Positions 5,216-35,228 of a stretch of 54,786 bases of DNA are shown here, piece after piece. The notes below the pieces were generated by a model. It did not search any database. It was not told the DNA's origin and saw only the letters and a program-made list of their open reading frames with translations. The number at the start of each line of letters is the position of its first letter. Positions within the stretch are counted from its first letter, which is position 1. Made by a program: the position numbers and the translations under genes. The stretch is from a virus. The stretch spans positions 121,868-176,653 of IMG/VR virus record IMGVR_UViG_3300028534_000013. One strand, written 5' to 3'.

Positions 5216-5244
5216 ATTATACCCAATACGAAGATATTAGTAAA
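5216..5244 (-). promoter_or_regulatory. sigma70-type promoter TTTACT-17-TATAAT
   Basis: Overlaps the terminase stop; 17-nt spacer. Confidence 0.6.
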
Positions 5245-6868
5245 ATGCAACCTGACCATTAAGTCTAAATACATAACCAAAAAAACCGAACACTAAAGAA
5301 TGCAAAGAGTCATCCGGGGCGCTAGGAGAATGCGTCCATATTTTATTACCGGCTTTTGTTTGTTGTGAAAATTCAGCCAATATATCTTGAAAGAAAGGTA
5401 AACTGTCTTCGAATCTTGGCCAAAATATTTTTAATGTTTTTGTGTTTTTGACAGCATTGGGATTATATGTTTTTTTAAGCAAAGGGTAAACAATGTCTTG
5501 TTTTAGAATACCCATTACTGTATCTATTGCCTGAGTTCTGTGTATATTCAATATGTTTGCCTCAGGGTCATATTTAAAAGGTTTTCCGGATGTTCCAACA
5601 TATCTTATAGGCAAAACTCTGTTAGGCCCAAACTCTCTTGTAAGAATAGCATTTTGATATGCGCCCATACCGGCATCAGCAAATATATAATCAACTCTAT
5701 ATAGATAACAGGCCTGTTTTACTCTTTCTAATGTTCCGTTAGGGTCTCCAGGAGGAAGAATGTCTCCCCCTATAACCTCAAGGTCACCGTCCTTCCTTTG
5801 TCCTATAACAAGATATGAGGTTCTTGATTTATCTTCAACCACACCCTCACCAGACCAGTCAATACCTATAAATATATTTCTATATAACAATTTAGTTTCA
5901 TTGTCCACCTGTTTTAAAAGACGTTTTCCAGGAAGACACAACTTTTTAAGTTCCTCCATGGTCAAAAATCTTTTTCCGGAACCGGTTGGTATACCAAGAA
6001 CCTCCTGGTTAAATTTATCAGGAGAATATTCTTCAAATTTTTGATAAACGTCAACCCATTTTTGTTTGGTTTGATGTATAGGCATAATTACCTGCGGAAG
6101 CCTAACAGAAATATATCTGCTTTTTGAATTAACTTCTGTTATGGCAAACTTAGAATCTTCCTGATATATAGGTTTACCGCAAAAAGCACATATCAATCCA
6201 TTTTTGCCTATATTTTTTCTTGTAATAATATTAGACTTATTGCACGCTCTACATTTATATACTCTCTCTATTTTTGTTGAATCGTTCCATAATATGCCGG
6301 TTAAATTCTCTGCGCTTTTAGCCGTTCCGGCGTATGTTACTGTCGGCCGTAAAGAAGATGTGATTGTCTCTTTAATTACAGGTAACGCATCTGGAACTAT
6401 ATCCTGAGTTTCATCTATAAACAAATCATCCGCCGATTTACCCCTTACCCTTGCCGGGTCATCAGACGCTAAAGAGGCATATGTTAACTCTATGTATGAG
6501 CCTAAAGAATTTTCTTTATAAAAAACATTGTTACCGCTTTTAGCAAAAAACCTATCTAAAAATGGAGAATCTTTTATAATGGGACCAAGTTTTGTTTTAG
6601 ACCATGTTTTGGCTTGAGCTTCCAGCGGAGAAACATACAATATTCTATTATGAGGTATTATGACTGATTTAGTCCCCGCTTTAGACGCCAAATAAACAGA
6701 TTTACCTATCTGTCTACCGGCAATAATAACAAGTTCTGGAGGGTTTAAATCATAAACAAACTTCATTGGCTCATATAGGCCAAAATCTATCCTTTTCCCT
6801 TCCACATATATATTGTCGGAAATAAACTTACTAATGCGTGGGTCGCATGGTAATGTAATAGCTGACAT
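5237..6868 (-). CDS. terL: Terminase large subunit (543 aa)
   Basis: Walker A AGRQIGKS, Walker B LFIDETQD, motif III AGT, CxxC..CxxC Zn ribbon, RNase H-like nuclease motifs IGIDWS and DDSLHS. Confidence 0.93.
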   Translation of the reverse strand: MSAITLPCDPRISKFISDNIYVEGKRIDFGLYEPMKFVYDLNPPELVIIAGRQIGKSVYLASKAGTKSVIIPHNRILYVSPLEAQAKTWSKTKLGPIIKDSPFLDRFFAKSGNNVFYKENSLGSYIELTYASLASDDPARVRGKSADDLFIDETQDIVPDALPVIKETITSSLRPTVTYAGTAKSAENLTGILWNDSTKIERVYKCRACNKSNIITRKNIGKNGLICAFCGKPIYQEDSKFAITEVNSKSRYISVRLPQVIMPIHQTKQKWVDVYQKFEEYSPDKFNQEVLGIPTGSGKRFLTMEELKKLCLPGKRLLKQVDNETKLLYRNIFIGIDWSGEGVVEDKSRTSYLVIGQRKDGDLEVIGGDILPPGDPNGTLERVKQACYLYRVDYIFADAGMGAYQNAILTREFGPNRVLPIRYVGTSGKPFKYDPEANILNIHRTQAIDTVMGILKQDIVYPLLKKTYNPNAVKNTKTLKIFWPRFEDSLPFFQDILAEFSQQTKAGNKIWTHSPSAPDDSLHSLVFGFFGYVFRLNGQVAFY

Positions 6869-6869
6869 T

Positions 6870-7580
6870 TTAAGCCTTAGCTATTTCTTTAATTTGTCCT
6901 TGGAGAGTATTGCTTTTTTCTTTAACATATTCAACAATAGGTAAATGCATTTTATAGTAATTCTCAAGAGCGTTTTGAGGGTGTTTAATTTCAGAAGATA
7001 GTTTCCATAACCTATCTAAGCTTGTGTTGGCCTCTTTCACAAACGATGAATCAAAATATGGAAACAAATGATTGAATTTATCATTATTTGCAAAAAATAA
7101 AGGAGGCTGAGTCCACCCGAAATTTTGAAAAGACTCAGCTATATACTCTAACGCATCTCCGAAAACAGGCAAATTTTCAACGTTATATAAAGCCATAAGC
7201 AGCACTATCGCCCACACTATTTTATGAGGAGCGTGATATTCGGTACTATCGACATCCACTAAATCATCGTTTAAAATTTGAACTGCATTTTCAAAATGGT
7301 CTCTGTTCGTTAGAACGTAATCTTCATTTTTCATTACGTACACCATATATACTATATCCATTATATCTTGATAGGAATACCCTTTTCTGCCTAAAACTAT
7401 TTCAAACGTTTCGAGCTCCCACTCCATTATACCAGGTCCAAATTCTTTTATGGCACAAAAATATTTAACCACCCTCATTTTGTCTACATTATTAAATAAA
7501 AAAGCTTTTTCATAATCAGATATTTTATACAGCTCTTTACTTATAGTATGAGACAAATCTTGGATAATAGGGAAAAGCAT
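6870..7580 (-). CDS. Hypothetical helical protein coupled to terL (236 aa)
   Basis: Long ORF; 1-nt gaps to both neighbours. Confidence 0.8.
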   Translation of the reverse strand: MLFPIIQDLSHTISKELYKISDYEKAFLFNNVDKMRVVKYFCAIKEFGPGIMEWELETFEIVLGRKGYSYQDIMDIVYMVYVMKNEDYVLTNRDHFENAVQILNDDLVDVDSTEYHAPHKIVWAIVLLMALYNVENLPVFGDALEYIAESFQNFGWTQPPLFFANNDKFNHLFPYFDSSFVKEANTSLDRLWKLSSEIKHPQNALENYYKMHLPIVEYVKEKSNTLQGQIKEIAKA

Positions 7581-7581
7581 T

Positions 7582-8751
7582 TTACACCTTGTTGTTGAAT
7601 TTTATCTTATAAACATTACTATCATCAAGGACAACATTAAAATCATCGTCTACTTTTTTCTTAATTGTAACATAAATATCATCTTTTTTAGCTTCAAAAA
7701 ACGGAAATTTCCCATTATTTAAAGATAAGTTAATTTTATTTTTGCCGATATTATACACATTTTCTTCTAATACAGCTTCATTAAACCCATAAGATTTTGT
7801 TGTGTTTTTTATTTTTACAATAGTGTTTTGATACACGGGATATATATCCATATCTATTTTTAAAGCGCCGTTCACATAAATCTGTACATTGTTAATTCTA
7901 AGCATAGACAACAAAGCGTTTTCAATTTCAGCATTTAACTCATCTGGGTCTTTTGAAAGCTCTATTGTTACTTCTTTTTCCTTTTCACTATTTATGTTAT
8001 CGGGTAACATAGCAACACTTGAAGAAGGAAGAACATCAAACTCTTTAACTATAAAGGCAAAATCTTCAAAAGTTTTTATAGACTCCGCTTTGTCTTTTAT
8101 AATCTTTTTTATTTTTAAGAATTTAACTAAATTTTTTACATTTAATTCAAGCAAACATCTATTTATGAAAGTATAATCAAAAAAAGAAAGTATTTTTTCG
8201 TTCTTATCACATACGAATTCTCTGAATTGAGAAGATGTTAGACTTAATGACGTTAATACTTCTTCTAGTGCAGCTTCCATATTTACCGTATACGTATCGT
8301 TTAATGTTAATTCCATTTTTTTTGCAATAGTTTTTAATTTTAAAAGCAAATACACAGATTCGTCTTCCTGCTTTAAACCATCCAATAATTCGTCAATATC
8401 GGTTTCGTCTCCCCCTGATATAAATCTATCATCAAAAAACGAAAATTCTATAGATGCGTTTATAACTTTCGGAAGTCCTTCTACCGAATTGTTAGATAAA
8501 ACAATCTGTTTAATGCCGTCTTCAGTGAATATTACATTTTCAAAACTGCTCGAATCATCTAAAGTTTTGTAATCATACAAATCGTTAACCTCTCTGCTTG
8601 CTATAAATTTTTTAGTTCCGTCCGGATAATATACAAAATATCCCTGTAAAAACAATGTAGGTTTCTCATCCGTAACAAAAAAAACTTTATAAACCCTATG
8701 TTTTCCGTCAAAAGTGCCGTAATTTATCAAACATATCTGTTTAAATAACAT
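7582..8751 (-). CDS. Hypothetical protein (about 389 aa; start MLFKQI)
   Basis: AAGGA RBS precedes ATG at 8751. Confidence 0.8.
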   Translation of the reverse strand: MLFKQICLINYGTFDGKHRVYKVFFVTDEKPTLFLQGYFVYYPDGTKKFIASREVNDLYDYKTLDDSSSFENVIFTEDGIKQIVLSNNSVEGLPKVINASIEFSFFDDRFISGGDETDIDELLDGLKQEDESVYLLLKLKTIAKKMELTLNDTYTVNMEAALEEVLTSLSLTSSQFREFVCDKNEKILSFFDYTFINRCLLELNVKNLVKFLKIKKIIKDKAESIKTFEDFAFIVKEFDVLPSSSVAMLPDNINSEKEKEVTIELSKDPDELNAEIENALLSMLRINNVQIYVNGALKIDMDIYPVYQNTIVKIKNTTKSYGFNEAVLEENVYNIGKNKINLSLNNGKFPFFEAKKDDIYVTIKKKVDDDFNVVLDDSNVYKIKFNNKV

Positions 8752-8920
8752 TGTCTTCCTTTGTATCTTCTGTATAACAGTATAAATCTTTCTCATCTAA
8801 ATGGATAAGATATGATTTTTTATCATTCGGTTTTTTTTCTGAAACAATTATTTTTTTATTTTTAAACTCATCTTGGGCTTCCTGAGGCAATATCCTAAAA
8901 TTTTGTTCGTCTATTATCAT
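8741..8920 (-). CDS. Small hypothetical protein missed by the ORF track (59 aa, MIIDEQNF...EDNVI)
   Basis: AAGGA RBS; exactly fills the gap; translated by hand. Confidence 0.7.
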   Translation of the reverse strand: MIIDEQNFRILPQEAQDEFKNKKIIVSEKKPNDKKSYLIHLDEKDLYCYTEDTKEDNVI

Positions 8921-8930
8921 GACAATCCTT

Positions 8931-10100
8931 TTAAAATCTTAAATTTTCAAGATACTCTATATCCATTATGGTTTCATCGGTATATGCCAATCCTGAGCTT
9001 AAATCAATATCTGCTTTTTCGTTGTCTGTAGATATTAGTAAACCTTTTTCAGTTTCTGTATCACCGCAATTTGTAACAACTAAACCGTTATTAACGCTTA
9101 TGGCTCCGTACCAGTTAGTCACAAAATCAGAATATTCTTTCAATGTCATAATTTTATCTACAAAATCAATTTCTAAAATGTACCTATCGGAACCGTCTTT
9201 TAAAAGATAATACAGTATATCATTTGTGTTTCCAGGCAATACAATTTCTAAATATTCAAGTAAATTGATTTTATTAAGCAAAACCTCTTTTACATCTAAT
9301 TTTATTCCAAAAACCTTCATAGCAGTAACAACATCTTCTTCATTTGTGATAACCACTTGCTCGTCAGTAAACACTTTCTGAAAAAACGTATTGTCGGATA
9401 ATTCATTTACAAAACTAAAGTAACCGCTGTACATAAGTTTTGGAATATATGCAGTCATATGTCTCGACGAGTTTAAGTTGGCAAACAAAACAGGTTTGCC
9501 GTCAACATATTTTCCTTTTACTTTGTTTCTATCTATTCTTAAAAGAACATTTATGTCGCTATTTTTATAATATTCATCAAAAACATCAGTTTGGTATATT
9601 CTATCAAGCCTGATTAAAAAATTAGCTATTACCCCTTCTACAAAATCTGTTTCTGGTTCAAAAGTAAAAACAAATGGGCTGAAATTTACTTTTAATGTTG
9701 ATTTTAGCTTAAGTGCAACATCCCTTACGGAAACAGCAAATTTGAATGTAAGGGGAGTGTATAAAAAATCTCCAAATTGGAATTGATATATATTCAACTC
9801 TTTATTAAACGAAATTCCTTTCATTATATAAAACAGTCCGTCGACTTTCCCAAACAAATGTTTACATATTGCTTCTTGGTATGTACTATAAGGGCCATAA
9901 TAATCGTTTACTTCAAAGTCATACACATAATATGTGCCGTCCCACATATTTATTCCAAAAGCAAATTTGTCCACCAAAAAGACAAGTGATACGTCTTTAT
10001 CGTAAAACAAATCTTGTTTGTTAAAATTTTTATTAGTAAGATTAAATATTAAAACCCTATTTATAAATCCCGCATTTGACGGACCTATTGTCACAAACAT
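8931..10100 (-). CDS. Hypothetical protein (389 aa)
   Basis: Long ORF; TAATG coupling. Confidence 0.85.
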   Translation of the reverse strand: MFVTIGPSNAGFINRVLIFNLTNKNFNKQDLFYDKDVSLVFLVDKFAFGINMWDGTYYVYDFEVNDYYGPYSTYQEAICKHLFGKVDGLFYIMKGISFNKELNIYQFQFGDFLYTPLTFKFAVSVRDVALKLKSTLKVNFSPFVFTFEPETDFVEGVIANFLIRLDRIYQTDVFDEYYKNSDINVLLRIDRNKVKGKYVDGKPVLFANLNSSRHMTAYIPKLMYSGYFSFVNELSDNTFFQKVFTDEQVVITNEEDVVTAMKVFGIKLDVKEVLLNKINLLEYLEIVLPGNTNDILYYLLKDGSDRYILEIDFVDKIMTLKEYSDFVTNWYGAISVNNGLVVTNCGDTETEKGLLISTDNEKADIDLSSGLAYTDETIMDIEYLENLRF

Positions 10101-11983
10101 TAAACATCCTTTGTATGATAAATATTTATATACTCTGCATAGGCGTCATTAATGTCATTAATTGACACATTTCTGTCTATAACTTTTCCGTTGTATATAA
10201 TTTTATCATTTAAAATTAAATCTTCCAAACTCCTATCAGTTTTGATTAAAATCCTGTCATCAAAAGTGTGAATTTCTTCTATTTGATAGTATTGCCCATC
10301 AATAAATAAAACGCTACCCTCTTCTATGTTATTATCTACAGACAAAGGAATGTATTTGTCATATTTTTTAAACTCCAAATATGAAAGCTCTTTAAACGCA
10401 TCCGTTGAAAACAACTGCTCTTTATCAACCGGTTCAGTTATTGCGTTTTGGCCACTTAAATCATCAGAAGTTTCTGCAAACACAACAGTATTGTCTCTCT
10501 TGTCAAATCCTACAACAGTATATTCATTGCCGTTTACAGTTATTTTTTGCCCTATATAAATATTAGGCAGTGTATCCCCGATAACAAAAGATACGGAATC
10601 TATAAATTTATATTCAGGAACAGTAACCTGCGTCCCTTTAGATATTGCATCATTTGATATATCATTAACTATCAACAAATGTTTTTCATCATCCAAATAA
10701 TTAACCACACTTTCAAAAGAACCTATTGTTATTTTTCTCATATATAAAGAAAAATCAGGTATGTCTTGTATGTAAAATCTTCTGCTGTAAGGTTTCGTGT
10801 CAACAGCTGTAACAGTTTGAAACTTTTCTCTTTCTTGAGGCAAATCACAAAACACATAACCGTTCACGTAAGTTTCCTCTTCATCAGATAAAGGTTTTTC
10901 AAAAAACACTTTGTTATCTATTACAGCTATTATATCTCTCCATGCAAAAGCCGCTTTTTTAGTGGCGAATTTTATTCTGTGACCAGCCAACAAATAACCT
11001 GTGTTTTTGACAGTAATATAATTATCTCCTGCTTGAGATGCTTCAGTAATTACAGTTTCAACAGCAAAAGGGCTTCTTTTGTCTGTAAGATACATTTTAT
11101 CGTTAAAATTAAAATCTGGGTTTTTAATAAAATTATTATCACCAAAGATGCAATACTCATCGCACTTTTGCCCTTCAATATAATTATTATTATGTGCTAC
11201 TATATGTAAATCTATTTTATTAGCTGTTTTAATTGAAATATAATTATCTTTATTTGCCGCCACGAAAGTAAAAGGATAATAAATATTGCCGAACATATCC
11301 ACATATACTCTATTGTAAATTTCAACATTGTTATTAAAATTTAAAAAGGCTCTTTTTTTTGTATTGTTAAAAACAAATTTATTAAAACCTCCCAACGCCA
11401 TATCTGGACCAACAGTTCCAACATTTCCATTTGTACCATTTTTCCTTTTGGACAATTCACAGAAAAACAATCCGCAGTATTGTTTAGCTGCCTCGATAAG
11501 CTCTAACGGAGGTTCAAATGCAACAGGGTTTATAGCTACAAAACTATAATCACCGTCAAAAAAAACTATATCATTAAGCTGTTCACTGTCTATATCAATA
11601 AGGTTACCTTTTGAGTCTTTAAAAACAATTTTATTACCGTTTAAATATACATTTATTTTTCCATCACTTCCGCTTATAATAATATTTGAATACTTTTTTG
11701 GAGTTGTATTTACACTGAATTGGCGTCCGTTTATAGAGATAGGGATAATTGCCGTTTGAGTGTTCGTTACGTTGAGTCCAATTGAAAAAATAGAGCCAAC
11801 CGAATAATTTATTGAAGATAAGCCAACGTTTCTCCCGTCTACAATAAGATTCTTTCCCAGGCTATTTACCTCACAATTTTTAAATTGTATATTTTTTATT
11901 CTAAAAGAGTTTAATTTAAAAAAATTTACATGTTCAGGTATAGAATTGTCAGAATCTTTAAAAAAATTTCTATATGCTCCCAT
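10100..11983 (-). CDS. Probable virion structural protein with a LamG-like segment and repeated small beta-domains (627 aa)
   Basis: GKINVYLNG; repeats AGHRIKF, IGQKITVNGNEYTV, EGSVLFIDGQYYQI. Confidence 0.55.
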   Translation of the reverse strand: MGAYRNFFKDSDNSIPEHVNFFKLNSFRIKNIQFKNCEVNSLGKNLIVDGRNVGLSSINYSVGSIFSIGLNVTNTQTAIIPISINGRQFSVNTTPKKYSNIIISGSDGKINVYLNGNKIVFKDSKGNLIDIDSEQLNDIVFFDGDYSFVAINPVAFEPPLELIEAAKQYCGLFFCELSKRKNGTNGNVGTVGPDMALGGFNKFVFNNTKKRAFLNFNNNVEIYNRVYVDMFGNIYYPFTFVAANKDNYISIKTANKIDLHIVAHNNNYIEGQKCDEYCIFGDNNFIKNPDFNFNDKMYLTDKRSPFAVETVITEASQAGDNYITVKNTGYLLAGHRIKFATKKAAFAWRDIIAVIDNKVFFEKPLSDEEETYVNGYVFCDLPQEREKFQTVTAVDTKPYSRRFYIQDIPDFSLYMRKITIGSFESVVNYLDDEKHLLIVNDISNDAISKGTQVTVPEYKFIDSVSFVIGDTLPNIYIGQKITVNGNEYTVVGFDKRDNTVVFAETSDDLSGQNAITEPVDKEQLFSTDAFKELSYLEFKKYDKYIPLSVDNNIEEGSVLFIDGQYYQIEEIHTFDDRILIKTDRSLEDLILNDKIIYNGKVIDRNVSINDINDAYAEYINIYHTKDV

Positions 11984-11994: not shown

Positions 11995-13902
11995 TTAATA
12001 TTTAATTTCATATGACAAGGCTTCAAAAAAACCTACATCGCTTACGTTTTTATAGTATACCCTGTAAAAAAGCCCCATAGAACCGTTTAATGGTTCAGAA
12101 ACAAATAGTGTACTTACAGGGAATTCAAGCGTTATATCTTTTCCGTCCAAGTTTTTATATTTTATCTGAGTATAATCACAACTTGTATCAGCTTTAAAAT
12201 AAGAACTCACACTGTTGAAAAACGACACAAACTCATCCGAATTCATAATGGAATCTTTATGTTTTGCGTATATTGCCCCTGTTGTAGGCTGGTACAATAC
12301 AGTAACTACAGTTAACTCTCCGTCTTCCATTAAGCCTATTCGTCCGAACGTGTCAACGCTAACTTTTTCTTTAGGCAGAGTTATTTGGAAATTATTAGGA
12401 TTTACATTTAACACACTGTTTTTCTCTATTATAGAATAGCTGTTCACATCTATTTTACTATACAAAACAGTCGCTTCTGCCGAATCTGCAACATAGTCAT
12501 AATTTTTTTTCTTAAACATATTGACTTTGCTTTTAGTGTTTGTCATCTCTACTTCAGGGTATGTTCTGTATCTGTAATAATATTTAGTTTCTGTTGACTG
12601 GTTTCCGTTTACTTTTCTATTATCTTGAATTTTATATCTCGTTACATCATCATATATATCCATCTCATAATAATTACTAGAATTCGTATAGTTATATGTA
12701 ACTGTTATTTGGGTGGTATCATCTTTATATTTTTTAACATTAAACAATGGATTTGAAAAAACGCCAACCCCTTTTCTTACGGCAGCGTGTAATTGAGTAG
12801 CAAAATCAGCATCATCATGTTTTAACACCACGTTATCCAAATTGTTAGTTTTAATAGTAATACTTTTACCTTTTTTTATGTAAAATTTAACTCCAGTCTC
12901 AATAGACGTGTCATCAGAATATACACAGCTGTCAGTATGAGCTTTTGCTTTGCTGTAAGTTAAATAAGCATAAGATGACCCTATATACGCATAAGATACA
13001 AAAAGAATATCACTGGCTTTAAAAAATCCATAATCATACATTCCTATGCCGTTCTCTTCATTTACTATTGAAGATATTAATCTAGATAAAATAAATTGAC
13101 TTATTTTCCCATCTCCCGTATGAAACATATTTTTTTCATTGGTGTCTAAATATTCCTCTCTATCAAAATCATATATAGATTCCATATTCACACCTACAGA
13201 AGTACCTTTCACAATATTTAAAACGGACCCATATTTATCTATTTGCACCCCATCAAAAACGATTTGTTTTTTTACAAGAATTTTATTTTCAACATCATAT
13301 TCATAATAATAGTCGTCCATAGGTTCATCGTCTAAAACGGAAACAGTTCTGTCTTTAGCCAACAGGTTATATACGTTAGCGCAAGTGCTTATATTTCTTA
13401 TAGTCACAGAACCTTTTGTAAAAGTAAAGCCGTCACTTTGAGACTCTCCGTCAATTGTGAGATTTCCGCTTGAATCAACTTCAACGGTAAACTGTTCCGG
13501 GGAAGTGAATGAGATAGTAAACTTATTGTCGCTAAACGACACTTCTAGTTCAACATAGTTATCATTACTTTCTTCTATGTTTAAAGCAAACAAATCCCCA
13601 AGTATTGAACTTTGAGAAAAAGTATTATCATGTATCACAAAATTTAAAGGAACATCCAGCTGTTTAGCGTATGTAAAATATAAAGATGAACCGTTTATCT
13701 CTCTAAGCTCAGAAGCATATATTGTGCCATCAACTTGTATAATAGCTTTATAACTTCCGCTATTTAACGCAATCTGTTGGTTTAAATCGTTTTTCAAAGT
13801 AACAGCATCACTGTTTGTAACTATTTTAAATTTAGATTTAATGCTGTCAGGTGAAAAAATAGTAGAAGGAATGTTGAAATTGTTTATATTGTAAATAACC
13901 AT
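11995..13902 (-). CDS. Probable virion structural protein, beta-rich (635 aa)
   Basis: FHTGDGKISQFIL resembles the GDG..F.L motif of tail/baseplate proteins; S/T/Y/N-rich. Confidence 0.5.
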   Translation of the reverse strand: MVIYNINNFNIPSTIFSPDSIKSKFKIVTNSDAVTLKNDLNQQIALNSGSYKAIIQVDGTIYASELREINGSSLYFTYAKQLDVPLNFVIHDNTFSQSSILGDLFALNIEESNDNYVELEVSFSDNKFTISFTSPEQFTVEVDSSGNLTIDGESQSDGFTFTKGSVTIRNISTCANVYNLLAKDRTVSVLDDEPMDDYYYEYDVENKILVKKQIVFDGVQIDKYGSVLNIVKGTSVGVNMESIYDFDREEYLDTNEKNMFHTGDGKISQFILSRLISSIVNEENGIGMYDYGFFKASDILFVSYAYIGSSYAYLTYSKAKAHTDSCVYSDDTSIETGVKFYIKKGKSITIKTNNLDNVVLKHDDADFATQLHAAVRKGVGVFSNPLFNVKKYKDDTTQITVTYNYTNSSNYYEMDIYDDVTRYKIQDNRKVNGNQSTETKYYYRYRTYPEVEMTNTKSKVNMFKKKNYDYVADSAEATVLYSKIDVNSYSIIEKNSVLNVNPNNFQITLPKEKVSVDTFGRIGLMEDGELTVVTVLYQPTTGAIYAKHKDSIMNSDEFVSFFNSVSSYFKADTSCDYTQIKYKNLDGKDITLEFPVSTLFVSEPLNGSMGLFYRVYYKNVSDVGFFEALSYEIKY

Positions 13903-23400: not shown

Positions 23401-23650
23401 CATATTCTTTTGAAAGCATAGTTTTGTACTGCTGAAGATAAATTCCATCTATAGCCGTTTTAAAACCGCTTGTTCTTGCTTTATTTAAAAATAACGTAGC
23501 TTGTCTTACTATTTCAGGAGATTCATTTGCGAATACAATGCTTAATGTGTCAATATCATCAGTTTTTATTTTGTTAAAAAACTCTATTTTAGATTTCTCA
23601 ACCTCTCCTGAATATTCAGGATTGGTTACATATCCCTCTTTTAGCAACAT
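20462..23650 (-). CDS. Large hypothetical protein (1062 aa)
   Basis: Long ORF; TAATG coupling. Confidence 0.85.
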   Translation of the reverse strand: MLLKEGYVTNPEYSGEVEKSKIEFFNKIKTDDIDTLSIVFANESPEIVRQATLFLNKARTSGFKTAIDGIYLQQYKTMLSKEYVKYGDNWVLFLEIGTDRQEGLEFTEKGLSDTKMAIALIDGINYITFEGVGKVFIVQNKFSTAFGFIDISKVNEYMKKQTPKKPYQLDNLEESALLIDSPAQLFAKDTAFYRDGDFIGVWISFGTLVKYDVLNLNNLNIDGTQVAIVEDTLSDAEKIKKIMENKSAGYASLIVNSEKLLNFLLKKAKQHNLDSNKMSGTKICTDDVLYNLQEKGILGITYEKVDSIKEMYLPAFDYTTASVKEIVGEAVLFIYQDEYIWMNYSEKDKEIRFLTYKGDVYSNEDSNVKVKVYNNPTLSRVSKVNPDNFILFTGFSNLKENSVLDFYFDDSTEFFTSTNSKFAIDVNAFDDFYKQYTESFNTLFNEEKEMFKTFGNNKYAFTTGLIHYDEIKTQNKTEYRLEMETDFDFKSIVDVPTKTAHINVLTMNNYGYLKSEGFDIPESNFETYLREYVTGEKQDFPVDGFTFFNVLRKYSNGWTTLKDGDRFVTLHTERDIVYDFIFGNFLGEAEKKAKNIKELYDSGQDVNIPEAAQELYAEFVSYKEKIRSFKIGSILSENSRKVRVVSESDRFEFVKKSDNMYVNSVPTTEICNHAILFEDAFVRAKTKQLIGTEFNFYCPYIQLFKINEEEEKFSISVISDNSSKIKSVLYPDVGLKIAHGDINQDTPDGIMESKYQAIFTYYGKRKINGSFMDIFSVRHGSKYQIKTEKLEEEIDKYFQAANMDISDAKSKYKAIKEEQKELEAKIQNNILKNVNVEPSLKVSAEDNFIPFGVNGYIAFTRGKILVSVDGSEWFEPYFTDNGLRLNTSMYVVNVDAFETSLQNMVLSDLANHLYYGKTIDDDLVDLNQVSIKRIDINKDFKHMNVLFSFADVPCVYKGILYQPGELVNATVEIDKDYDEIDGDKRVVFFDGYIEYETIYPVSTKNNISNAEEILNNENCFTVKHHLPCLMKLDSEKYIFETKTEALNAGVKMFFNFKGSENE

Positions 23651-25354: not shown

Positions 25355-28300
25355 TTATTCCTTTATAAGATATGAATTTTCATCTCTAACAATTTTAGTG
25401 GCTATAAAATCGTTATACAGTAAAACACCGTTATTATATTTGTCTTTCATTGTATTAAAATCATAACATAATCCGTCCTGATTGAAAAAGTAAGTATTGT
25501 CAATTTTGATATTTACGACTAAATCAGTATCCGTTGGATTGTTTATCCACACAAACATTTTACCGTTTTGCAAACAAAGGTCATCACTGTTTATAACGCC
25601 GTCAGAGAAAGGCATGAAATCAACATTAAAGTTTTTAACTTTATTTAAAACAGTTTCATCATCGCTTCCGTCACACAGAAAAGATGTAGGAATATTCCAC
25701 ACCATGTCAGACAAAGTGTGTATGCTTTTGTATATTTTTTGCAAATCATAATCCACTTTTACATAAGAGCCGTCCAATCTTTTTTGAACAGTGTCTTCTC
25801 TTAAATCTTGTATCAGTTGAGCTTTGGTGTTATTAAAATATGAACTAAATATAGCTGTTTGCTCATGAACATCGACGCTTATTTTTCTGTTTAAAATAGT
25901 GTTACCTATTGCAAAATAATATTCTATATTTTCAGACGATTCAGTACTGTAATTGCTTGTACACATTCCTTTTACAGTGGAATATACATTGTCTCTTAAT
26001 ATTGCATTAGGAATAAAGGCCCTGTTTCCTTTTCCAAGCTCCAACAGCCATTCAACTTTCTGTCTTCTAGGTATTTGAGTTTCTATACCGCCGTCAAACA
26101 GGGAAACTATTTTGCTGTCTATATTAAATTTAAACGGTGTAAAGTCGCCTTGGGTTGCACTTACATATGAGAGAGCTTCGACTCTATATTTTCCTTCATC
26201 ATCAACAGCCATATTCACAAAATCATGCAAAAACTCACTTTCATCAGAATAGTTTGATTTTTTCAACGCTTTTAATAAAAACTCTTTCTTAACTTTTACA
26301 AACATATCACCGTAATGCAAGTACGGTCTGCCATAAAAAACAGAATTTATAGCGGCCGGAATTGATAACACATCACTTGTATTGCCATTATAATTTATTT
26401 TTATAAATCTACCTTCGGGAGCATCTTGGAATTCTACATTTACTTCATTGTCGTCAACTATTGATTCTGTCTCGTCTATTTGAGAAACAATAAATTGTTT
26501 AACGCCCTTAGAGTATAAATAGTTTAAAAATCTCTCAGGAATAAATACAATGTTGTCGCCTTTTGAAATCTTTCCGTCTTCAGTGTGAACATCACACTCC
26601 AAAGGTCTGTCAGAAACAAATTTTCCTCCTTTAAAAAATAAAGAAGAATAAGGGATATTGTATTCTAAAATCAGATTGTCGCCCTGATATACTTCAACGG
26701 TTAATTGCACATCTGTGTCTTTTTGCAGAAAGATATTTATTTTTACATTTCCTGTTGTATGCTCAATTCCTCTTTTATTATTTTCTACAATAAGCTTTTC
26801 ACTAAAATTGTCACCTGTGTACATTGTTTCTGTTAAAAATATCAGAAGCCCTAAATTGTCAATTTTATAATAAGGTTTTTCAGCTATTTTTGAAAATCCT
26901 TGATAATTAAACAAATATTCTTCCATATATGACGGGAAAGCTTCCATAAACATATTCATACAAACATCAGATAAAACCGGAGAAGTAGGAACGATACTGT
27001 CAACATTGGGAGTATTAAAACCTGCCGCAACAACAGTTTTAGGGATTACTTTAGCCACATTCCATGTATTGTTCCAAAATACAGAGTTTTTTCTGTAAAA
27101 CACATTGAAATACATTGTATTTCCGTCAGGACGTGCATTGCTATAATAATTTTCTTCTTTCTTACAATAACAACCGCTAACAGGTTCTCTGTATAAATCG
27201 TTTCTTTTGTTTGATTCAAATATGGCCAAATCGTAATCTTTTCCATTTTTGTTTATGTGCCATATTAACGACATTGTGTACAAGTCTTCATAATCTGAAG
27301 TTTTGTATAAGCTTTGTATTTTATTTACAGGATAGCCTGATATATAATGAATATTTCCGTTTGTATATGATAAACCTCTCAGCCATACTCCGGTTTTACT
27401 GTAAACGCCTAAACCGTTTTCAGTTTTTCTGCTTATCGTTTCTTCTTTTGCGGTAACATCTGAATAAGTTTTAAACTCATATCCTTTGTCATAATATACT
27501 TTTGTAAGCTCATATAATTTATATTCATACCCGGGACCGAAGTTTGTTTTTGTTTCACACCATATAGGGTTTGTGTCTCCTGACGCAGTAGAGGTTCCTT
27601 TGTACGCTTTGTACCCATAAATATCTATAGCTTTAACATATCCAATTTCCACTTTTCCATTATGTTTTACATAATCAAGCTGATATATAAAACTAGGGTG
27701 TCTTTCTATATCGTTTATATAATTTTTTAAAGGGCGCTCACCTATAATGTTTCCATCTTCGTCAGTGAAAAAGTATGCTTCGTTATTTTCAACAATGCCC
27801 GCTTTTTTATAGTCTGTTTCATTTGTTTTTTTATAATATAAAGTTGCGTTGTTAAACTTAATATTATATCCATTATATATCATAGAATTGTCATCGGCTT
27901 TGGTAATCTCTATTGATTTCGTGTCTGAATTGTTGAATATTTTTAAAGGACCTAACTGAAAAACAGATTTAGGAGAAACTGTTATTTTACTTTCGGCTTT
28001 GCTAATATCCCATATATAATTGGAAGCAAACAAATGTGTGCCCCCCAGATTTGAAAATCCGGTTTCCCCAAAAACAGCTCCTTCTTTATCCACAGAGGAG
28101 ATTTCAACTATTACGTCATTTATTTTTTGCACAATAGATGGAGCGTCAGATATTTTTTTGATTCCATACGGATAAACAACCACGGCTTTCCCGTTAACTC
28201 TTAAGAACATAAAACTGTTGGTTTTATTTACAAAAAGATATTCTCCCGCCTTAAATTCTTCCGACGTTGTTTTTAATGTTTCTGTAATTTCTTTAATTTC

Positions 28301-29086
28301 ATATTCGTTTTCTGTGGCGTCACTTTTGCCTATACTGTCAACAGGCACTCTGTCTATTACACCGGCATCAAACAGACTATTTGATTTTTGATAAATTGAT
28401 TTATATTTAAACTCATATTTACCCTCTTTAAATTCTTTGACTATAAACATACACTGTTCAAATTTATCTGTATCTGTTTTTATTTCAAAATACTTATAAT
28501 CATCTGTCAAAAATATTGCAAATTTTTCATATTTTTTTCTCAAAAAAGGATAATATGAATAATCTGTTTTTTTAACTTCCTCCACTTTGTATTTCATGTT
28601 TTTTTTATGTTTATCTATATAATCGGCTGCTATTTTTGCTTTCTCTTCAATGGAACCGGCTTTGTCTATCATTTCATTCATTTCTTTTATTTCATCTGCA
28701 GTAAGCCCTACATGCCCTACAGGAGTTTCATCTGCAGACAAACTGCATCCGCCAAAGGTTGAAAACAAAGGATTGTGTATTCCCTCATCATTAAACACCA
28801 GTTCCTTTCTTAAAAATAAATACAAATTTGAAAACAGCTGGGCCTCAGCGTTTCTTACAAATGAGAAAAAATTAACACCAACAACACTCCTTCCGTAAAA
28901 ACAGGTGTTAATTCCTGTAAAAATCCTCTTTGAGCCGCCCATGAGCGATGTTAAAAATTTATTGTCTCCATATTCGAAAACAAATTCATTGGTGTAAATA
29001 TTTGCTATATCGGCTTTGTTCTTAAATTTAACAATATCATTATTAATGTCTTTTTCCATTCCTAGATTAGCTTCATTAAAAACCAT
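25355..29086 (-). CDS. Large hypothetical protein (1243 aa)
   Basis: Longest ORF in the window; AAGGA RBS. Confidence 0.85.
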   Translation of the reverse strand: MVFNEANLGMEKDINNDIVKFKNKADIANIYTNEFVFEYGDNKFLTSLMGGSKRIFTGINTCFYGRSVVGVNFFSFVRNAEAQLFSNLYLFLRKELVFNDEGIHNPLFSTFGGCSLSADETPVGHVGLTADEIKEMNEMIDKAGSIEEKAKIAADYIDKHKKNMKYKVEEVKKTDYSYYPFLRKKYEKFAIFLTDDYKYFEIKTDTDKFEQCMFIVKEFKEGKYEFKYKSIYQKSNSLFDAGVIDRVPVDSIGKSDATENEYEIKEITETLKTTSEEFKAGEYLFVNKTNSFMFLRVNGKAVVVYPYGIKKISDAPSIVQKINDVIVEISSVDKEGAVFGETGFSNLGGTHLFASNYIWDISKAESKITVSPKSVFQLGPLKIFNNSDTKSIEITKADDNSMIYNGYNIKFNNATLYYKKTNETDYKKAGIVENNEAYFFTDEDGNIIGERPLKNYINDIERHPSFIYQLDYVKHNGKVEIGYVKAIDIYGYKAYKGTSTASGDTNPIWCETKTNFGPGYEYKLYELTKVYYDKGYEFKTYSDVTAKEETISRKTENGLGVYSKTGVWLRGLSYTNGNIHYISGYPVNKIQSLYKTSDYEDLYTMSLIWHINKNGKDYDLAIFESNKRNDLYREPVSGCYCKKEENYYSNARPDGNTMYFNVFYRKNSVFWNNTWNVAKVIPKTVVAAGFNTPNVDSIVPTSPVLSDVCMNMFMEAFPSYMEEYLFNYQGFSKIAEKPYYKIDNLGLLIFLTETMYTGDNFSEKLIVENNKRGIEHTTGNVKINIFLQKDTDVQLTVEVYQGDNLILEYNIPYSSLFFKGGKFVSDRPLECDVHTEDGKISKGDNIVFIPERFLNYLYSKGVKQFIVSQIDETESIVDDNEVNVEFQDAPEGRFIKINYNGNTSDVLSIPAAINSVFYGRPYLHYGDMFVKVKKEFLLKALKKSNYSDESEFLHDFVNMAVDDEGKYRVEALSYVSATQGDFTPFKFNIDSKIVSLFDGGIETQIPRRQKVEWLLELGKGNRAFIPNAILRDNVYSTVKGMCTSNYSTESSENIEYYFAIGNTILNRKISVDVHEQTAIFSSYFNNTKAQLIQDLREDTVQKRLDGSYVKVDYDLQKIYKSIHTLSDMVWNIPTSFLCDGSDDETVLNKVKNFNVDFMPFSDGVINSDDLCLQNGKMFVWINNPTDTDLVVNIKIDNTYFFNQDGLCYDFNTMKDKYNNGVLLYNDFIATKIVRDENSYLIKE

Positions 29087-29096
29087 GTATCATCCT

Positions 29097-30272
29097 TTAT
29101 TTTTTAAAATCGTTATAAGGTAATTCCTCTTTGGTTGTCTCATACACGTCAAGATGCTCTTCATAATCATAACCAAAAAAATAATTAAAATCTTTATCAA
29201 GAGGTTCATCCGGATTTATAGTTGAGCTTATTCCGTCTTTTGTAAAAAAACCATACTTGTTTCTTTCTGGAGAATCAGTGACCACATTGAATTTTTTTTC
29301 TGTTTCCATTTTTGATTCTATATACACAGGAAACGGAATATCTCCATAATAATAAACGTCTTTTGCTTTGCTTGTAGTGTTATAAAGATGGTTATTGTAT
29401 TCTATCTTACTTTTTCCATCAGGGTTTAAGTCCCTTATTGTAAACACTCCAACAGTTCCATACAGTTTGCCTATAGCCACTTCTATTGGTATCTCAACTT
29501 CTTTACCTGTTAGAAAAGACATCAATTTTGCATACGATTTTAACAAACTCTGAGAACTTAAAGTTCCGTCAACGTTTAAATTTTTTAAAATCACGTTAAA
29601 TGTATTCATGTATTTAAACTCTTCATTTTCTTTTTCAGATATTTTATACACCGGAACCGCTGATGGAACAGAGCAAACATCCCTATCGGTAGTGGTTGTT
29701 TCTGTTTCTGCTTCAGAATTAGTCATATCAACTAAAAAAGCATAATAAAACACATCGTCTATTTTTCCTTCTTTTTTGGCGTAATCAAACAAATCTCTTG
29801 GGACAAGGACTATATTCATATCTTCTATTGAAATGGGAAATATCACCAGTATATATTCCATTGACAAAAACGTTCCGTTTAATTCAAAAGTTAAATCCTG
29901 TCCCATTAATTGACTGTACTCTTTAGCGTAATCTATTTCTTTTGATGCTATTTCTTTTGTTATTTGTTTCTCTATATTAGCAAAAGGATTTCCTATTTTA
30001 CACATATTTATAAGTGCTTTTTTAGTGTTTATTCCTCCGAAAAAGTTAAACCCAGCATCACATGCTTTTATTAAATTTAAAAACTCTTTATTTTTAAGAG
30101 TCATAATCACTTTATTTGCTTTTAATGTATTTTTCTCCTCTGTTTTATCCATTTTTAAATTTTTAAAAACAGTATCACTTCCCGGTTTTTTATCTCCTGA
30201 AGTGGCATAATAAATAGGAATATCTGAAATATGTCCCGTCATCGCATTTTTAGAACTGTCATAAGCTAACAT
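29097..30272 (-). CDS. Hypothetical protein (391 aa)
   Basis: Long ORF; AAGGA RBS. Confidence 0.85.
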   Translation of the reverse strand: MLAYDSSKNAMTGHISDIPIYYATSGDKKPGSDTVFKNLKMDKTEEKNTLKANKVIMTLKNKEFLNLIKACDAGFNFFGGINTKKALINMCKIGNPFANIEKQITKEIASKEIDYAKEYSQLMGQDLTFELNGTFLSMEYILVIFPISIEDMNIVLVPRDLFDYAKKEGKIDDVFYYAFLVDMTNSEAETETTTTDRDVCSVPSAVPVYKISEKENEEFKYMNTFNVILKNLNVDGTLSSQSLLKSYAKLMSFLTGKEVEIPIEVAIGKLYGTVGVFTIRDLNPDGKSKIEYNNHLYNTTSKAKDVYYYGDIPFPVYIESKMETEKKFNVVTDSPERNKYGFFTKDGISSTINPDEPLDKDFNYFFGYDYEEHLDVYETTKEELPYNDFKK

Positions 30273-30274
30273 TT

Positions 30275-33061
30275 TTATCCTTTCACCTGATATATTACAA
30301 CATTGTTGCTTAACTTGACTTTGTTTGCGTCATATGTTTTTTTACTGTTTGTAGCGTACACGTTTTTAGCTGGATATAAAGAAACAAAATTGTTTACTTT
30401 CATATGTTTTTCAGGTTCATAATAATAATAATATGGAACCATCGACATTACACCCTCCATAATAGACTGTTTTCTTGCTGCACATTTATCTTCAATCATC
30501 CATCCCTGCAAAAGACTTACGTCGTCAGCTGCTTTTATTTTAGGAGTGGTGTTAATATGGTTCAACAAAACATCTATAATAAAAGGCAATAACATATTTT
30601 TAGAATCAGAAGGAATGCTGTTTTTAAATTCTGTCAACTTGTTTACAAATCCACTTAAACTTTTAACATCTGAAATATCAACCCTTCCGTCAAAAATTTT
30701 ATTATTTTCATCTGCCATTAGAATATTTTGTAACAAGTTTTTATTCTCCATATCTGTAACTTTATGGGACATATGAATAGGCGCTCTCGCTCCAATATCA
30801 GGAAGTGTAGCCACATAAGAAGGTAAACCTGTTTTAAAGTTGATATGTGAAAATCTACATACCTGCTCAACCGCCCACCATCTTAGCTCGTCAGTTAAAA
30901 ATATATCGCTGTTTGGATTGCATATATCAGAAATAGTATAGTTTGATATATACGATGAAGAAGAAGGAGAAAACCTTCCCACACTTGCCGTACGTGTATA
31001 TAGGCTAGGGAAAATAAAAGCTATATACGCAGTGCTTCTTTCACTGTTTGGGCTAATTAACGCAAACTCGTTACCCATATCTTCCCTTATGGCTTCTATA
31101 GTTTCACGCTCTTCTGTTTTCTGAAGAAGGTTAAGCATTGTGTATGCCTCAAATAGCGACATATACATATCCGATTTAGAAGCCATATGAATTGCATTTC
31201 TCACACTCTGAGCCGCCATATCATTAATTAAAGCGAAAGTATAGGCAAACGCTATTCTATTTAAAAGCCCTATAAGACCAAATGAAGCGCCTCCTCCCAT
31301 AAATGATAGAGCAAAAAATATAGGACCCTCTATTAGAGCTATCTGAGTTGTTAAATCACATGCGGCTGCTACTTGAAAATTCATAATAAATTCAAGGGTT
31401 TGATTTGACTGCACTATTCCGTAAGAATTTTCAGTCTCATACATTTTAGGGTATATTTTTGAAATATATTTAACATTATTCGAAACCTCAGTAAGACCTT
31501 TAACAATGTTTTTCTTGTACAGCCAAACATAATCATCCATATTTGTTTTAATCTTAAATGCGTTATTGCTGCCTTCGTGCATCATTGCATCAACATACAA
31601 AACCAGCGCATTGTCCGTTTTAACCAACACACTAGGTTTTATTTGTTCACTAACTACGTCTTTTGTTTTTTCATCATAATAATAATCAGTAACACTGTCG
31701 GTATCAATTCCCATATTAAACATTCCAAAATTATACAACGCAGAATCGTACAATATTCCATCTTTTGTTCTTGATAAGTAAGGATAAGAATCAATATCCA
31801 TAGCCACAAAAGAGGCTCCTTCATTAATAAGCAATCCTTGCATTGCAATTATATAATCTATATTTTTGTGTGTGAAATCTACTTTAGGTATATTTCTTAA
31901 AACACTGAATTCTTCTGAACAATATACAGCCTTCATAAACAATTTTTTATTTAAACTCTGTATTACTGTTTCGGACTTATCAAACATTGTGTACACAATA
32001 GGTCTGTCAAGTTTAGCTTTAAGAGTTTTAGTTAATTTTTGTCCGCTTTCTCCTGTAAATGAAAGTTTAAGTGTTGCTCCTTTGATTACAGTCAAAATGT
32101 TGTATTCATTAAAGGAGGTGGCGCTTTCGTTTATCTTCACAACCACATGCAAATATAGAGGTTCCCCTTTCCCTTTCCAATCAACATAATAGCCGTCATT
32201 TTTTTTCTCAAGATTAGGTATATCATATCCTGAAACATTGCACGTAGCACTGGGCTGCTCAATTATTGCTCTGGATATTCCGTTACAAGTTAAAACAGAA
32301 TTATTTACCTCAATTATTGCCGATGTTTTACAGGCTTCTATTATTTTCTCCTTCTCAACACCGTTAGCGTCTCCATCTATTGGCTCCAAGTATTTATTAA
32401 CAGCTTCTATTGATAATTCATCTATTGTAAAAATACCTTTATCATCAAGATTATCTATTCTAACAAACAAACTAAAATAACCTTCCTTTGCTTGAGCGCT
32501 AATATCAAAAGTGAGACTTATATCAGCAGCCTGTTTTATTGGAACACTTATTTTTCCGTCTTCCGGTGGAGTAGCTGGTTTAGGTTCAGGTTTTTTCTCT
32601 TTTGTACAATCAGTTTCTTCAGGAGGTCTGTCTTTATATTTTTCAGAACACGGCGAATTAGTTGTATGTGTGTCATCATCATCTATCACAGGTTTTGAAT
32701 CATCATTGGAACTACCTGATGAACTTCCAGATGAGCTACCTGATGAACTTCCAGATGAGCTACCTGATGAACTTCCAGATGAGCTTCCGGACCCGTGTAC
32801 ATACTTTTTTAAAGCTTCCCTTATAAGTCTGTCAATTTCATCAAGATGCCCTTCTTTTTTTAACTGCTCATACTTTTCAGGCGGCATTAGTTTTTTTAAT
32901 GGCAGTTTTGCGTTTAAATTAATTCTTCTTACATCATATGCGTCATGCATACATTTTAAATCAATCTCTACCCCGTATTTACCTATTTTAACAACAACAC
33001 AAGGAACTAAGTCAAAATGAGGTCCTGACGGTTTTATTTTAGGATTTAATGAATCAAACAT
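30275..33061 (-). CDS. Large protein with a (GSSS)n linker and an internal Gly-rich hydrophobic segment (928 aa)
   Basis: GSGSSS repeat, Pro/Cys hinge, hydrophobic IFFALSFMGGGASFGLIGLL..IAFAYTFALI. Confidence 0.8.
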   Translation of the reverse strand: MFDSLNPKIKPSGPHFDLVPCVVVKIGKYGVEIDLKCMHDAYDVRRINLNAKLPLKKLMPPEKYEQLKKEGHLDEIDRLIREALKKYVHGSGSSSGSSSGSSSGSSSGSSSGSSSGSSNDDSKPVIDDDDTHTTNSPCSEKYKDRPPEETDCTKEKKPEPKPATPPEDGKISVPIKQAADISLTFDISAQAKEGYFSLFVRIDNLDDKGIFTIDELSIEAVNKYLEPIDGDANGVEKEKIIEACKTSAIIEVNNSVLTCNGISRAIIEQPSATCNVSGYDIPNLEKKNDGYYVDWKGKGEPLYLHVVVKINESATSFNEYNILTVIKGATLKLSFTGESGQKLTKTLKAKLDRPIVYTMFDKSETVIQSLNKKLFMKAVYCSEEFSVLRNIPKVDFTHKNIDYIIAMQGLLINEGASFVAMDIDSYPYLSRTKDGILYDSALYNFGMFNMGIDTDSVTDYYYDEKTKDVVSEQIKPSVLVKTDNALVLYVDAMMHEGSNNAFKIKTNMDDYVWLYKKNIVKGLTEVSNNVKYISKIYPKMYETENSYGIVQSNQTLEFIMNFQVAAACDLTTQIALIEGPIFFALSFMGGGASFGLIGLLNRIAFAYTFALINDMAAQSVRNAIHMASKSDMYMSLFEAYTMLNLLQKTEERETIEAIREDMGNEFALISPNSERSTAYIAFIFPSLYTRTASVGRFSPSSSSYISNYTISDICNPNSDIFLTDELRWWAVEQVCRFSHINFKTGLPSYVATLPDIGARAPIHMSHKVTDMENKNLLQNILMADENNKIFDGRVDISDVKSLSGFVNKLTEFKNSIPSDSKNMLLPFIIDVLLNHINTTPKIKAADDVSLLQGWMIEDKCAARKQSIMEGVMSMVPYYYYYEPEKHMKVNNFVSLYPAKNVYATNSKKTYDANKVKLSNNVVIYQVKG
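32708..32794 (-). repeat. Coding tandem repeat (GSSS)x6 with a 12/24-bp unit
   Basis: gatgaacttccagatgagctacct repeated. Confidence 0.95.
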
Positions 33062-33072
33062 ATTTTATTCCT

Positions 33073-34194
33073 TTATTTAAAAATATCCGGCAATGAATGT
33101 TTTTTATATTCCTCGTTCAGTCCTGAACATAAATCATAAGCTTTTTCGTAGATTGTTTTTTTCAATTCATCCAGCATTAAGTTTTCATCTTTTCTATAGG
33201 TTGTAAAAAATTTATATTGAACATATCCTCTGGTTTCATCAGGAGTATAATCAAGATTTGAATCACAGGGAATATCTCCGGGCAAATCTATAATAAGCCA
33301 ATTTTTATCATATACCGTAGTATACCAAAACGATTTATATCCTTGTTTACAGTGTTGAACGGCACTCAAATAAGGCTCATTGCTTACAATAGGATAAAAA
33401 TCTTTATCTCCATTGTTGTTTTTTATGTGTATTTGACTTACATCCATAGCATAATTTGCAGCATCAGCGGATACACTTATTAAAAACACGCTATTTTGCT
33501 GTTCAGTTCTGTCAAAAGCCGTATACATTGGCTTTGCCTCTGAAGTAAACATATTGAATTTTTCCACAAATTCATTTGACTCTGGAGTTAGCACAAACGT
33601 ATATTTTAAAAAATCATTAGTCATCTCAGTGGTGACAAGTTCTTGCCTAGGTAAATAAAACAGCGGTTTGTCAGCTCTATATGCACCAAGATAAGGAACC
33701 AGTTTAAAAGTGTTATCAGTAATTGTGATACTTATTCTTTGTTCAAACAATAATACGTCAATGTAATCACATGTAATTTCTACAGGATAATTTAACCCCA
33801 TATATTCTTTATCTATTTTTAATTGCACTTCAAATTCGGCAATATGGTCTTTGATTTCCACGTAATCCAAATAGTTTGAATTGTTAATTACCGAATAAGA
33901 TAATTTAATATCGTCCAATGGGTCAGAATCAACGTTGTATTTAATTTTATCAACATACAATACGCCGCTTTTTATTTCTGGAAAAAACATTTTTACTTTA
34001 TGAGTAAACGGAATTTGCCATCTTTTTTTGATTTCATCTATAATAAAATTATAATAAAGCGCCTCAGTTCCGTAATATGCTCCGATATATCTTAAACCGT
34101 AATACGGATGAAACATTTTAGCGTGAGGAATGAAAGAAAAAAAGCCGTGTTTATTAACCATAAACGACTTGTATTCATATCTAAACTGTCTCAT
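33073..34194 (-). CDS. Hypothetical protein (373 aa)
   Basis: Long ORF; GAGG RBS within the upstream gene end. Confidence 0.85.
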   Translation of the reverse strand: MRQFRYEYKSFMVNKHGFFSFIPHAKMFHPYYGLRYIGAYYGTEALYYNFIIDEIKKRWQIPFTHKVKMFFPEIKSGVLYVDKIKYNVDSDPLDDIKLSYSVINNSNYLDYVEIKDHIAEFEVQLKIDKEYMGLNYPVEITCDYIDVLLFEQRISITITDNTFKLVPYLGAYRADKPLFYLPRQELVTTEMTNDFLKYTFVLTPESNEFVEKFNMFTSEAKPMYTAFDRTEQQNSVFLISVSADAANYAMDVSQIHIKNNNGDKDFYPIVSNEPYLSAVQHCKQGYKSFWYTTVYDKNWLIIDLPGDIPCDSNLDYTPDETRGYVQYKFFTTYRKDENLMLDELKKTIYEKAYDLCSGLNEEYKKHSLPDIFK

Positions 34195-34195
34195 A

Positions 34196-35173
34196 TTACA
34201 CCTCTATTGCGTCTATTTCACTCTTAAGCGCATCCATATTGTTTTTTATTGACTCCATCTGAGTATTGTACCCGGCTAAGGATAAATTGTAAGCTTTTAC
34301 TTCATTTACAAACATCAAACTGTCATTAACCCACGACATTACATCTTTTGTGTAACCGTCTATTTTAGCCGCCAAATTATCAGCTGCATTAGAAAGCTCT
34401 GCAAAAGTTCCACCCATAAAACCTACAATAGATTCTATAGTTTTTTGTAGCGCATCATCTCTGTCAACAATATATTGTATTTTTCTTTGAAGCTCATCAA
34501 ACACCGATATAAAATCTCTTGCGGTAATATAAATTTTATTGAACTCTTCTGCAAAAAACGCATAATTTTCTATTTGTTTTTCAACTTCAACAATAAGATT
34601 GTTAACATAATCAATCTGTTGGTCCTGTGTAGTGTTTGTGTCTTTCATTTGTTGAAGGAGTAAATCCTGCTCATCAAGTTTTGAGATAATTTCTTGAATT
34701 TTGTCTTTTTGAGCAAGTATCTGCTGTGACAAATCCTTAGCAAACGCTATCTGAGAATTAAGTTCATTTATCTTATCATCGAATTTCAAATTACTTATAT
34801 ACGTAATCAAATCCCTGAAAGACTTATAAGAAGAAGATTTAAAAAGTTTCACATCAGCGATGTTTAAGGCTAATTTAGTAGCATCATCACTGTATAAAGA
34901 CATAATTTTGTTAGCTTCAGTATTAGCTATACTAAGTGGAACGTTTACAGCTTCCTGAACATCTTTTATTTTTTCATTCAACTCGTCTATCGTGTTAAGC
35001 ATAGACGTTACCGTATCTGTATCCATTAACGATTTAACTATAGAAAATTTTTCAATAAAATCTTTAATAGATAGAGCGTCTACACTTGTTTCACCTCTAT
35101 TGCTTATCATGTCAATCAAAGCGTCTATTTTACCCTGTAATGCAAGCAGTTGCTCCTGTGTAACGTATGACAT
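34196..35173 (-). CDS. Long coiled-coil protein, first gene of the large operon (325 aa)
   Basis: Heptad-like all-helical sequence; AAGGA RBS. Confidence 0.8.
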   Translation of the reverse strand: MSYVTQEQLLALQGKIDALIDMISNRGETSVDALSIKDFIEKFSIVKSLMDTDTVTSMLNTIDELNEKIKDVQEAVNVPLSIANTEANKIMSLYSDDATKLALNIADVKLFKSSSYKSFRDLITYISNLKFDDKINELNSQIAFAKDLSQQILAQKDKIQEIISKLDEQDLLLQQMKDTNTTQDQQIDYVNNLIVEVEKQIENYAFFAEEFNKIYITARDFISVFDELQRKIQYIVDRDDALQKTIESIVGFMGGTFAELSNAADNLAAKIDGYTKDVMSWVNDSLMFVNEVKAYNLSLAGYNTQMESIKNNMDALKSEIDAIEV

Positions 35174-35199
35174 ACTTTATCCTTATGGCTTTTTTGATA

Positions 35200-35228
35200 A
35201 TTATAACATAAAAGAAATTTGTTGGCTA
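35200..35228 (-). promoter_or_regulatory. Extended -10 promoter TGTTATAAT heading the roughly 30-kb operon
   Basis: TGn-TATAAT in the only sizeable intergenic gap; weak -35. Confidence 0.55.

Follow-up and report, generated by a model that had tools for sequence, protein, structure and literature searches.

A 17-gene run of giant proteins without known families leads into the terminase gene of an uncultured phage and may encode distal-tail and neck components

The stretch of DNA analysed here (the window, 54,786 nucleotides (nt)) is the final 54.8 kb of a 176,653-bp IMG/VR phage record that is rated complete (IMGVR_UViG_3300028534_000013), and it carries a long run of tightly spaced genes, numbered g01 to g15 from the upstream end, that leads into the terminase gene TerL (Table 1). 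The minus strand carries all open reading frames (ORFs) of at least 80 amino acids (aa) between positions 5237 and 35173, and successive genes of the block are separated by -14 to +11 nt, the exception being g13 and g14, which have an apparent gap of 134 nt between them. A first-pass annotation of the letters had described a gap-free run of 17 genes with gaps of 11 nt or less, starting from an extended -10 element at 35200, and this run is reproduced by the ORF coordinates. Its count of 15 genes and about 9,200 aa within 7582-35173 becomes ~9,190 aa on recount, once a 59-aa ORF is included (17 genes with g15 and TerL), and the giants of 856, 928, 1062, 1125 and 1243 aa that it singled out agree in size with the ORF list. 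The slot of the 59-aa ORF is occupied by a 222-aa gene in one relative (L017) and by genes of 282-297 aa in three others (L029, L030 and L032). Because alignments with relatives begin only at residue 16 of g14, the true start of this gene is probably Met16 at 8751, which has the ribosome site AAGGAAG.

The -10 box, TATGTTATAAT, ends at 35200, 27 nt ahead of the g01 start and within a 55-nt upstream space. Its core, TATGnTATAATT, is kept in a close relative (L004) and in a 49-kb contig of 50% identity (G001) in which the DNA around it can no longer be aligned. Within the operon, generic scans for promoters and terminators give counts no higher than chance, and a single transcript through the 17 genes is therefore plausible. 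TGnTATAAT boxes also occur elsewhere in the genome, and stand 19-30 nt ahead of the start codons of g01 and of the portal, 830-aa, 256-aa and scaffold-like 212-aa genes (window positions 35200, 3423 and 40936; genome positions 37038, 37838, 40615 and 52268). These boxes are probably a genuine and distinct promoter class with short leaders.

Table 1. Genes and promoter-like site of the block, with gene lengths in the distant relative G002 (positions in the window)
Feature	Position	Strand	Length (aa)	Length in G002 (aa)	Remarks
Promoter-like site	35200-35228	-			TAGCCA, 17 nt, TG-extended TATAAT
g01	34196-35173	-	325	328	Helix-rich; weak coiled-coil-type family matches
g02	33073-34194	-	373	383	Conserved, without family
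g03	30275-33061	-	928	745	Hypervariable slot; Gly/Ser-rich linker at ~residues 60-140
g04	29097-30272	-	391	388	Slot evolving fast
g05	25355-29086	-	1243	1335	Conserved giant without family; orthologues 1237-1335 aa
g06	23650-25353	-	567	590	Conserved, without family
g07	20462-23650	-	1062	1105	Conserved giant
g08	19849-20475	-	208	253	GTG start, 14-nt overlap with g07; small partner, poorly conserved
g09	16479-19856	-	1125	1142	Conserved giant
g10	13912-16482	-	856	914	Conserved, without family
g11	11995-13902	-	635	647	Beta-rich; conserved over full length, 24-27% identity in distant relatives
g12	10100-11983	-	627	507	Distant relatives keep only the middle, ~residues 240-517
g13	8931-10100	-	389	410	Conserved; adjoins terminase block
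59-aa ORF	8741-8920	-	59	297	Own AAAGGA ribosome site; fills g13/g14 gap; kept in close relative
g14	7582-8796	-	389-404	426	404 aa as listed; probably 389 aa
g15	6870-7580	-	236		Directly upstream of TerL in all relatives
TerL	5237-6868	-	543		phrog_675 at 1e-43; Pfam GpA_ATPase and Terminase_6N

The same gene order recurs in distant relatives, and the block behaves as one unit of inheritance: order, gene sizes and tight spacing are kept together down to 22-41% identity. G001 carries g01, g02, an unrelated 814-aa gene and then g04-g10 in order, at 26-55% identity, and its genes upstream of g01 differ from those of this phage. Four further distant loci were found with a widened g09 alignment. 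The first of these is in G002, a genome of 187.6 kb that is complete and has terminal repeats, in which block genes are separated by -29 to +12 nt and the series of gene lengths runs parallel to that of the window (Table 1), at 22-41% identity. In a 97-kb relative the block runs on into g15 and TerL. The best conserved member is g01, with 95%, 53% and 32% identity in three relatives. Measured against contig IMGVR_UViG_3300026484_000528, whose proteins are 67-96% identical, every gene is under purifying selection, with ratios of nonsynonymous to synonymous substitution rates (dN/dS) of 0.02-0.16 at saturating dS (0.85-1.47). The constraint on g01 (0.022) equals that on TerL and the capsid protein, and the fastest genes of the block are g03, g04 and g12 (0.12-0.16), with g03 the highest at 0.16.

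The same three genes stand out in the comparison between relatives. The g03 protein has 67% identity in the closest relative, and its slot is filled in G001 by the unrelated protein of 814 aa and in G002 by one of 745 aa. For g04, identity is 73% and 27% in two relatives; the gene is undetectable in G002, where a 388-aa gene takes its slot. The G002 proteins in the g03 and g04 slots appear to be either unrelated or diverged past detection. Neighbours of the g03, g04 and g12 slots stay at 25-50% identity, so that position is kept and sequence is replaced or evolves fast, as in a receptor-binding or tail-fibre cassette; this is the pattern expected for receptor-binding parts on a conserved frame. 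Within g03, a perfect tandem repeat (24 nt x 3.1, window 32709-32788) encodes the Gly/Ser-rich linker, and an upstream 476-aa gene contains a comparable repeat of 36 nt (35981-36094). Residues 20-160 of g12 resemble, by eye, a LamG or concanavalin-type jelly roll (e.g. 'KINVYLNGNKIVFKD'), a likeness for which Pfam gives no support.

The proteins had been called unrecognisable, and this is upheld: g01-g15 give only sub-threshold noise against Pfam, with no match at the cut-off, and zero matches against PHROGs. Ten orthologues from a 25%-identity relative and 19 members of the g09 family likewise yield nothing above cut-off in either library. A tblastn search of 50,697 phage records returns no match for g07 or g10 (expectation value E<=1) or for g05 (E<=0.001). 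In a set of 5.8 billion clustered proteins, the family of g07 numbers 16, and the only homologue of g12 is a close one. An exhaustive HMMER search of 1.84 billion representatives with the g09 profile recovers its own family alone, 14 sequences that are all full-length kin. Against PDB sequences, the g07 and g09 profiles and the single g05 and g12 sequences have no match, and the sole matches of g03 are artificial fusion linkers. A Joint Genome Institute (JGI) metagenome scan gives no contigs beyond those already known. Hidden paralogy, for which the first-pass annotation had proposed an all-against-all profile comparison, is not seen among the block proteins, either by all-against-all BLAST or by hhalign, where 105 of 105 family pairs are at or below 2.3% probability.

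Predicted structures were obtained for g07 and g09, each folded as a whole multi-domain chain, which lowers domain-level detection. The AlphaFold model of g07 (alignment of 16 sequences) has a predicted local distance difference test score (pLDDT) of 64 and a predicted template modelling score (pTM) of 0.51, is reasonably confident over residues 450-1050, and is beta-rich with two long helical hairpins. The g09 model (19 sequences, 24-88% identity; pLDDT 75, pTM 0.61, with residues 1-440 at 85-90) consists of beta-sandwich domains, and the two models read, at the confidence stated, as chains of such domains. Foldseek gives no fold match for g07 or g09 against the PDB, or for g07 against BFVD (template modelling score ~0.05). 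The structure check proposed earlier, on whether such proteins fall into ordinary baseplate or tail families, thus places neither of these two there, and its outcome covers g07 and g09 only. The ESM Atlas holds no usable match for g09 or g08, and its own model of g08 (pLDDT 0.36) is unusable. By composition the block proteins are beta- and loop-rich. The content of helix formers in the giants, a crude compositional proxy for a tape-measure protein, is 0.29-0.36, and beta structure predominates in the models of g07 and g09. Within the operon (window 8001-34000) the G+C fraction is 0.29-0.33, versus 0.34-0.40 in the flanks, which probably reflects proteins rich in Asn, Ile, Lys and Tyr.

The block has the same orientation as g15, TerL, a scaffold-like gene and the major capsid protein gene and adjoins them without a break, and the genome as a whole encodes portal, capsid protein, protease and terminase. 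The usual tail markers are not recognisable. No match to gp25 (Pfam GPW_gp25) is found at the sequence level in the whole genome (E<=1), in three relatives or among the operon proteins; Baseplate_J (gp6-like) has no Pfam match in the operon proteins or the relatives' records, and no baseplate match is seen for the g07 and g09 models; the PAAR spike tip (PF05488) has no match in the genome at E<=1; and no recognisable tail sheath gene occurs anywhere in the 176.6-kb genome. Because the head genes are present and sheath, gp25 and PAAR are unrecognisable, the tail would have to be encoded by two dark clusters, of which the block is one. The other lies at genome positions 83,300-108,500 on the minus strand, resembles the block in composition, and contains large genes, two with LamG lectin domains and one with an RCC1 propeller. 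The sole hint of a sheath in the clade is there, a PF04984 match at E 0.02 in the G002 orthologue of an 1169-aa protein, whose gene is followed by a well-conserved 229-aa gene. A two-sequence profile of the 1169-aa protein gives one weak PDB match that is not interpretable (9zdk_S, 'gp76', E 0.0044), and a profile of the 229-aa protein gives none. Tentatively, these two proteins may be the sheath and tube. Upstream of g01 in G001 (L026 1890-11170) lie two more giants of 1382 and 1096 aa, and the 1382-aa protein has an N-terminal region in common with an 823-aa protein of the second cluster.

In phage T4, the genes of the baseplate wedge, whiskers and neck (block genes 6-15, including the short-fibre gene) lie directly upstream of terminase genes 16-17. 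The present block is alike in that its structural genes, which encode large, beta-rich and non-paralogous proteins (~200-1,200 aa), follow one another in one direction over a long distance, directly before the small and large terminase genes, and TerL matches the T4-type Terminase_6N model. It differs in that its proteins resemble no T4 protein in sequence or, for g07 and g09, in fold, the gp25, Baseplate_J and sheath Pfam families are absent, and the terminase is not followed by sheath, tube and portal. The g15 protein, which has no match in Pfam or PHROGs, is from its position a candidate small terminase subunit.

The nearest cultured relative is Salmonella myovirus Arash (OQ632216), which has a similar genome size and shares TerL (29% identity), the major capsid protein (28%), portal, prohead protease, two multisubunit RNA polymerase chains and a weak gp4 match. 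Arash is a myovirus by electron microscopy, and mass spectrometry of its particles detects many giant 'structural proteins' of unknown fold, with the RNA polymerase the most abundant protein detected (PMC10585845). Unlike these shared genes, g01-g15 have no detectable counterpart in Arash, and its tail block gp228-gp239, with the PAAR protein gp239 and a sub-threshold sheath match in gp236, has none here. The Arash gp236 gene (OQ632216 166397-168517), labelled 'structural protein', gives a sub-threshold Phage_sheath_1 match (E 7.8e-6, 22.6 bits) and is probably an unannotated tail sheath. Compared with the operon proteins, gp236 yields no match.

Taken together, position, composition, the hypervariable slots and elimination, and not homology, point to a late operon that supplies the virion with its baseplate and adsorption complex and with neck proteins, a reading to which we give about an even chance. 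A tail role of some kind, whether distal or complete, is rather more probable than its opposite. The block would then be a unit for late virion morphogenesis in a deep-branching clade of phages, whose genomes measure 175-190 kb and include genes for a multisubunit RNA polymerase of their own. Transcription would start from the extended -10 at 35200 and probably continue across 17 translationally coupled genes as far as the terminase. In such a unit, the baseplate and adsorption complex of the distal tail would have g05-g11 as its conserved structural core, with exchangeable host-recognition parts supplied by g03, g04 and part of g12; g13 and g14 would be neck or completion proteins (g13 a candidate neck or head-completion protein), and g15 would be the small terminase partner. 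Tight coupling would hold the subunits in fixed ratios. Sheath and tube would tentatively fall to the second dark cluster, and the baseplate, adsorption and neck parts to this block, which would parallel the T4 layout with its baseplate-wedge and neck genes before the terminase.

Several observations weigh against assigning baseplate, adsorption and neck functions to the block. No tail, baseplate, fibre or neck match is obtained by sequence, by PDB profile or, for g07 and g09, by fold. Arash has head, portal, terminase and polymerase genes in common with this phage and none of the block, and its probable sheath gp236 is without a counterpart here. The case for a virion or tail role is indirect. 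In addition, in two genomes with TerL 66% identical (L014 and L015), only the N-terminal part of g14 (140 residues) and g15 precede TerL. The 28-kb block has been moved or lost in these genomes, and the link between block and terminase is therefore usual and not obligatory. The late operon of these two phages (L014 1-9300; L015) begins ~4 kb before TerL with genes for 476-aa, 138-aa, g14-like and g15-like proteins, and divergent small genes lie upstream.

The proximity of the block to the packaging genes could also be read in another way, namely that its products are internal virion cargo, carried within the head or the lumen of the tail and delivered by ejection to the host, for instance as a trans-envelope conduit or as the escort of an RNA polymerase borne in the virion; N4-, crAss- and phiKZ-like phages are examples of this. 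Relatives do package an RNA polymerase (Arash, PMC10585845), and large size, restriction to one lineage and a lack of recognisable features are common among ejected proteins. Such cargo is nevertheless unlikely, given that the operon proteins contain no membrane-spanning stretch (top 19-residue hydropathy 1.76, in g03), that their composition and the g07 and g09 models are rich in beta-sandwich and neither helical nor disordered, and that the hypervariable slots suit surface recognition better. Enrichment of Lys-x-Ala, a motif whose meaning as a mark of head-processed proteins is itself unproven, is also not seen in any operon protein (lowest p 0.04 in g07, 9 observed against 4.5 expected), as opposed to the scaffold-like 328-aa protein (p 1.7e-6), and this mildly disfavours head-internal cargo.

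That the block might instead encode a contractile tail in its entirety, with g07, for example, as a very divergent sheath and g08 as the tube, is distinctly improbable in our estimate. Large phages with their own polymerases can make intracellular compartments, and all folds here are unknown, as might be expected if the block built a compartment, scaffold, cytoskeleton or other non-virion structure or factory inside infected cells. However, the coupling to terminase and head genes, the hypervariable slots and the absence of both membrane segments and a repeated paralogous building block make this a very remote prospect. More tentatively than the baseplate, adsorption and neck reading, and on the doubtful side, the block may be a host-attachment and genome- or polymerase-delivery machine of new folds, non-homologous to the contractile-injection baseplate (gp6/gp25/gp27 core) and present clade-wide in ~180-kb phages from vents and other environments.

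The kind of object is thus known, a phage late structural operon, and its content is new, with at least 13 deeply conserved families that have no relatives outside one clade; for two of these, g07 and g09, the models are of moderate confidence and correspond to no known fold. Structural work gains at least 13 new protein families from the block, together with their alignments and a definition of the hypervariable slots, and the universality of the contractile-tail baseplate core can be put to the test. Were the block to be ejected cargo instead, it would be the largest such set described. If the assignment to a distal tail is correct, phages of a widespread uncultured clade would devote one sixth of their genome to a megadalton tail-end machine, no part of which is visible to current sequence or fold libraries.

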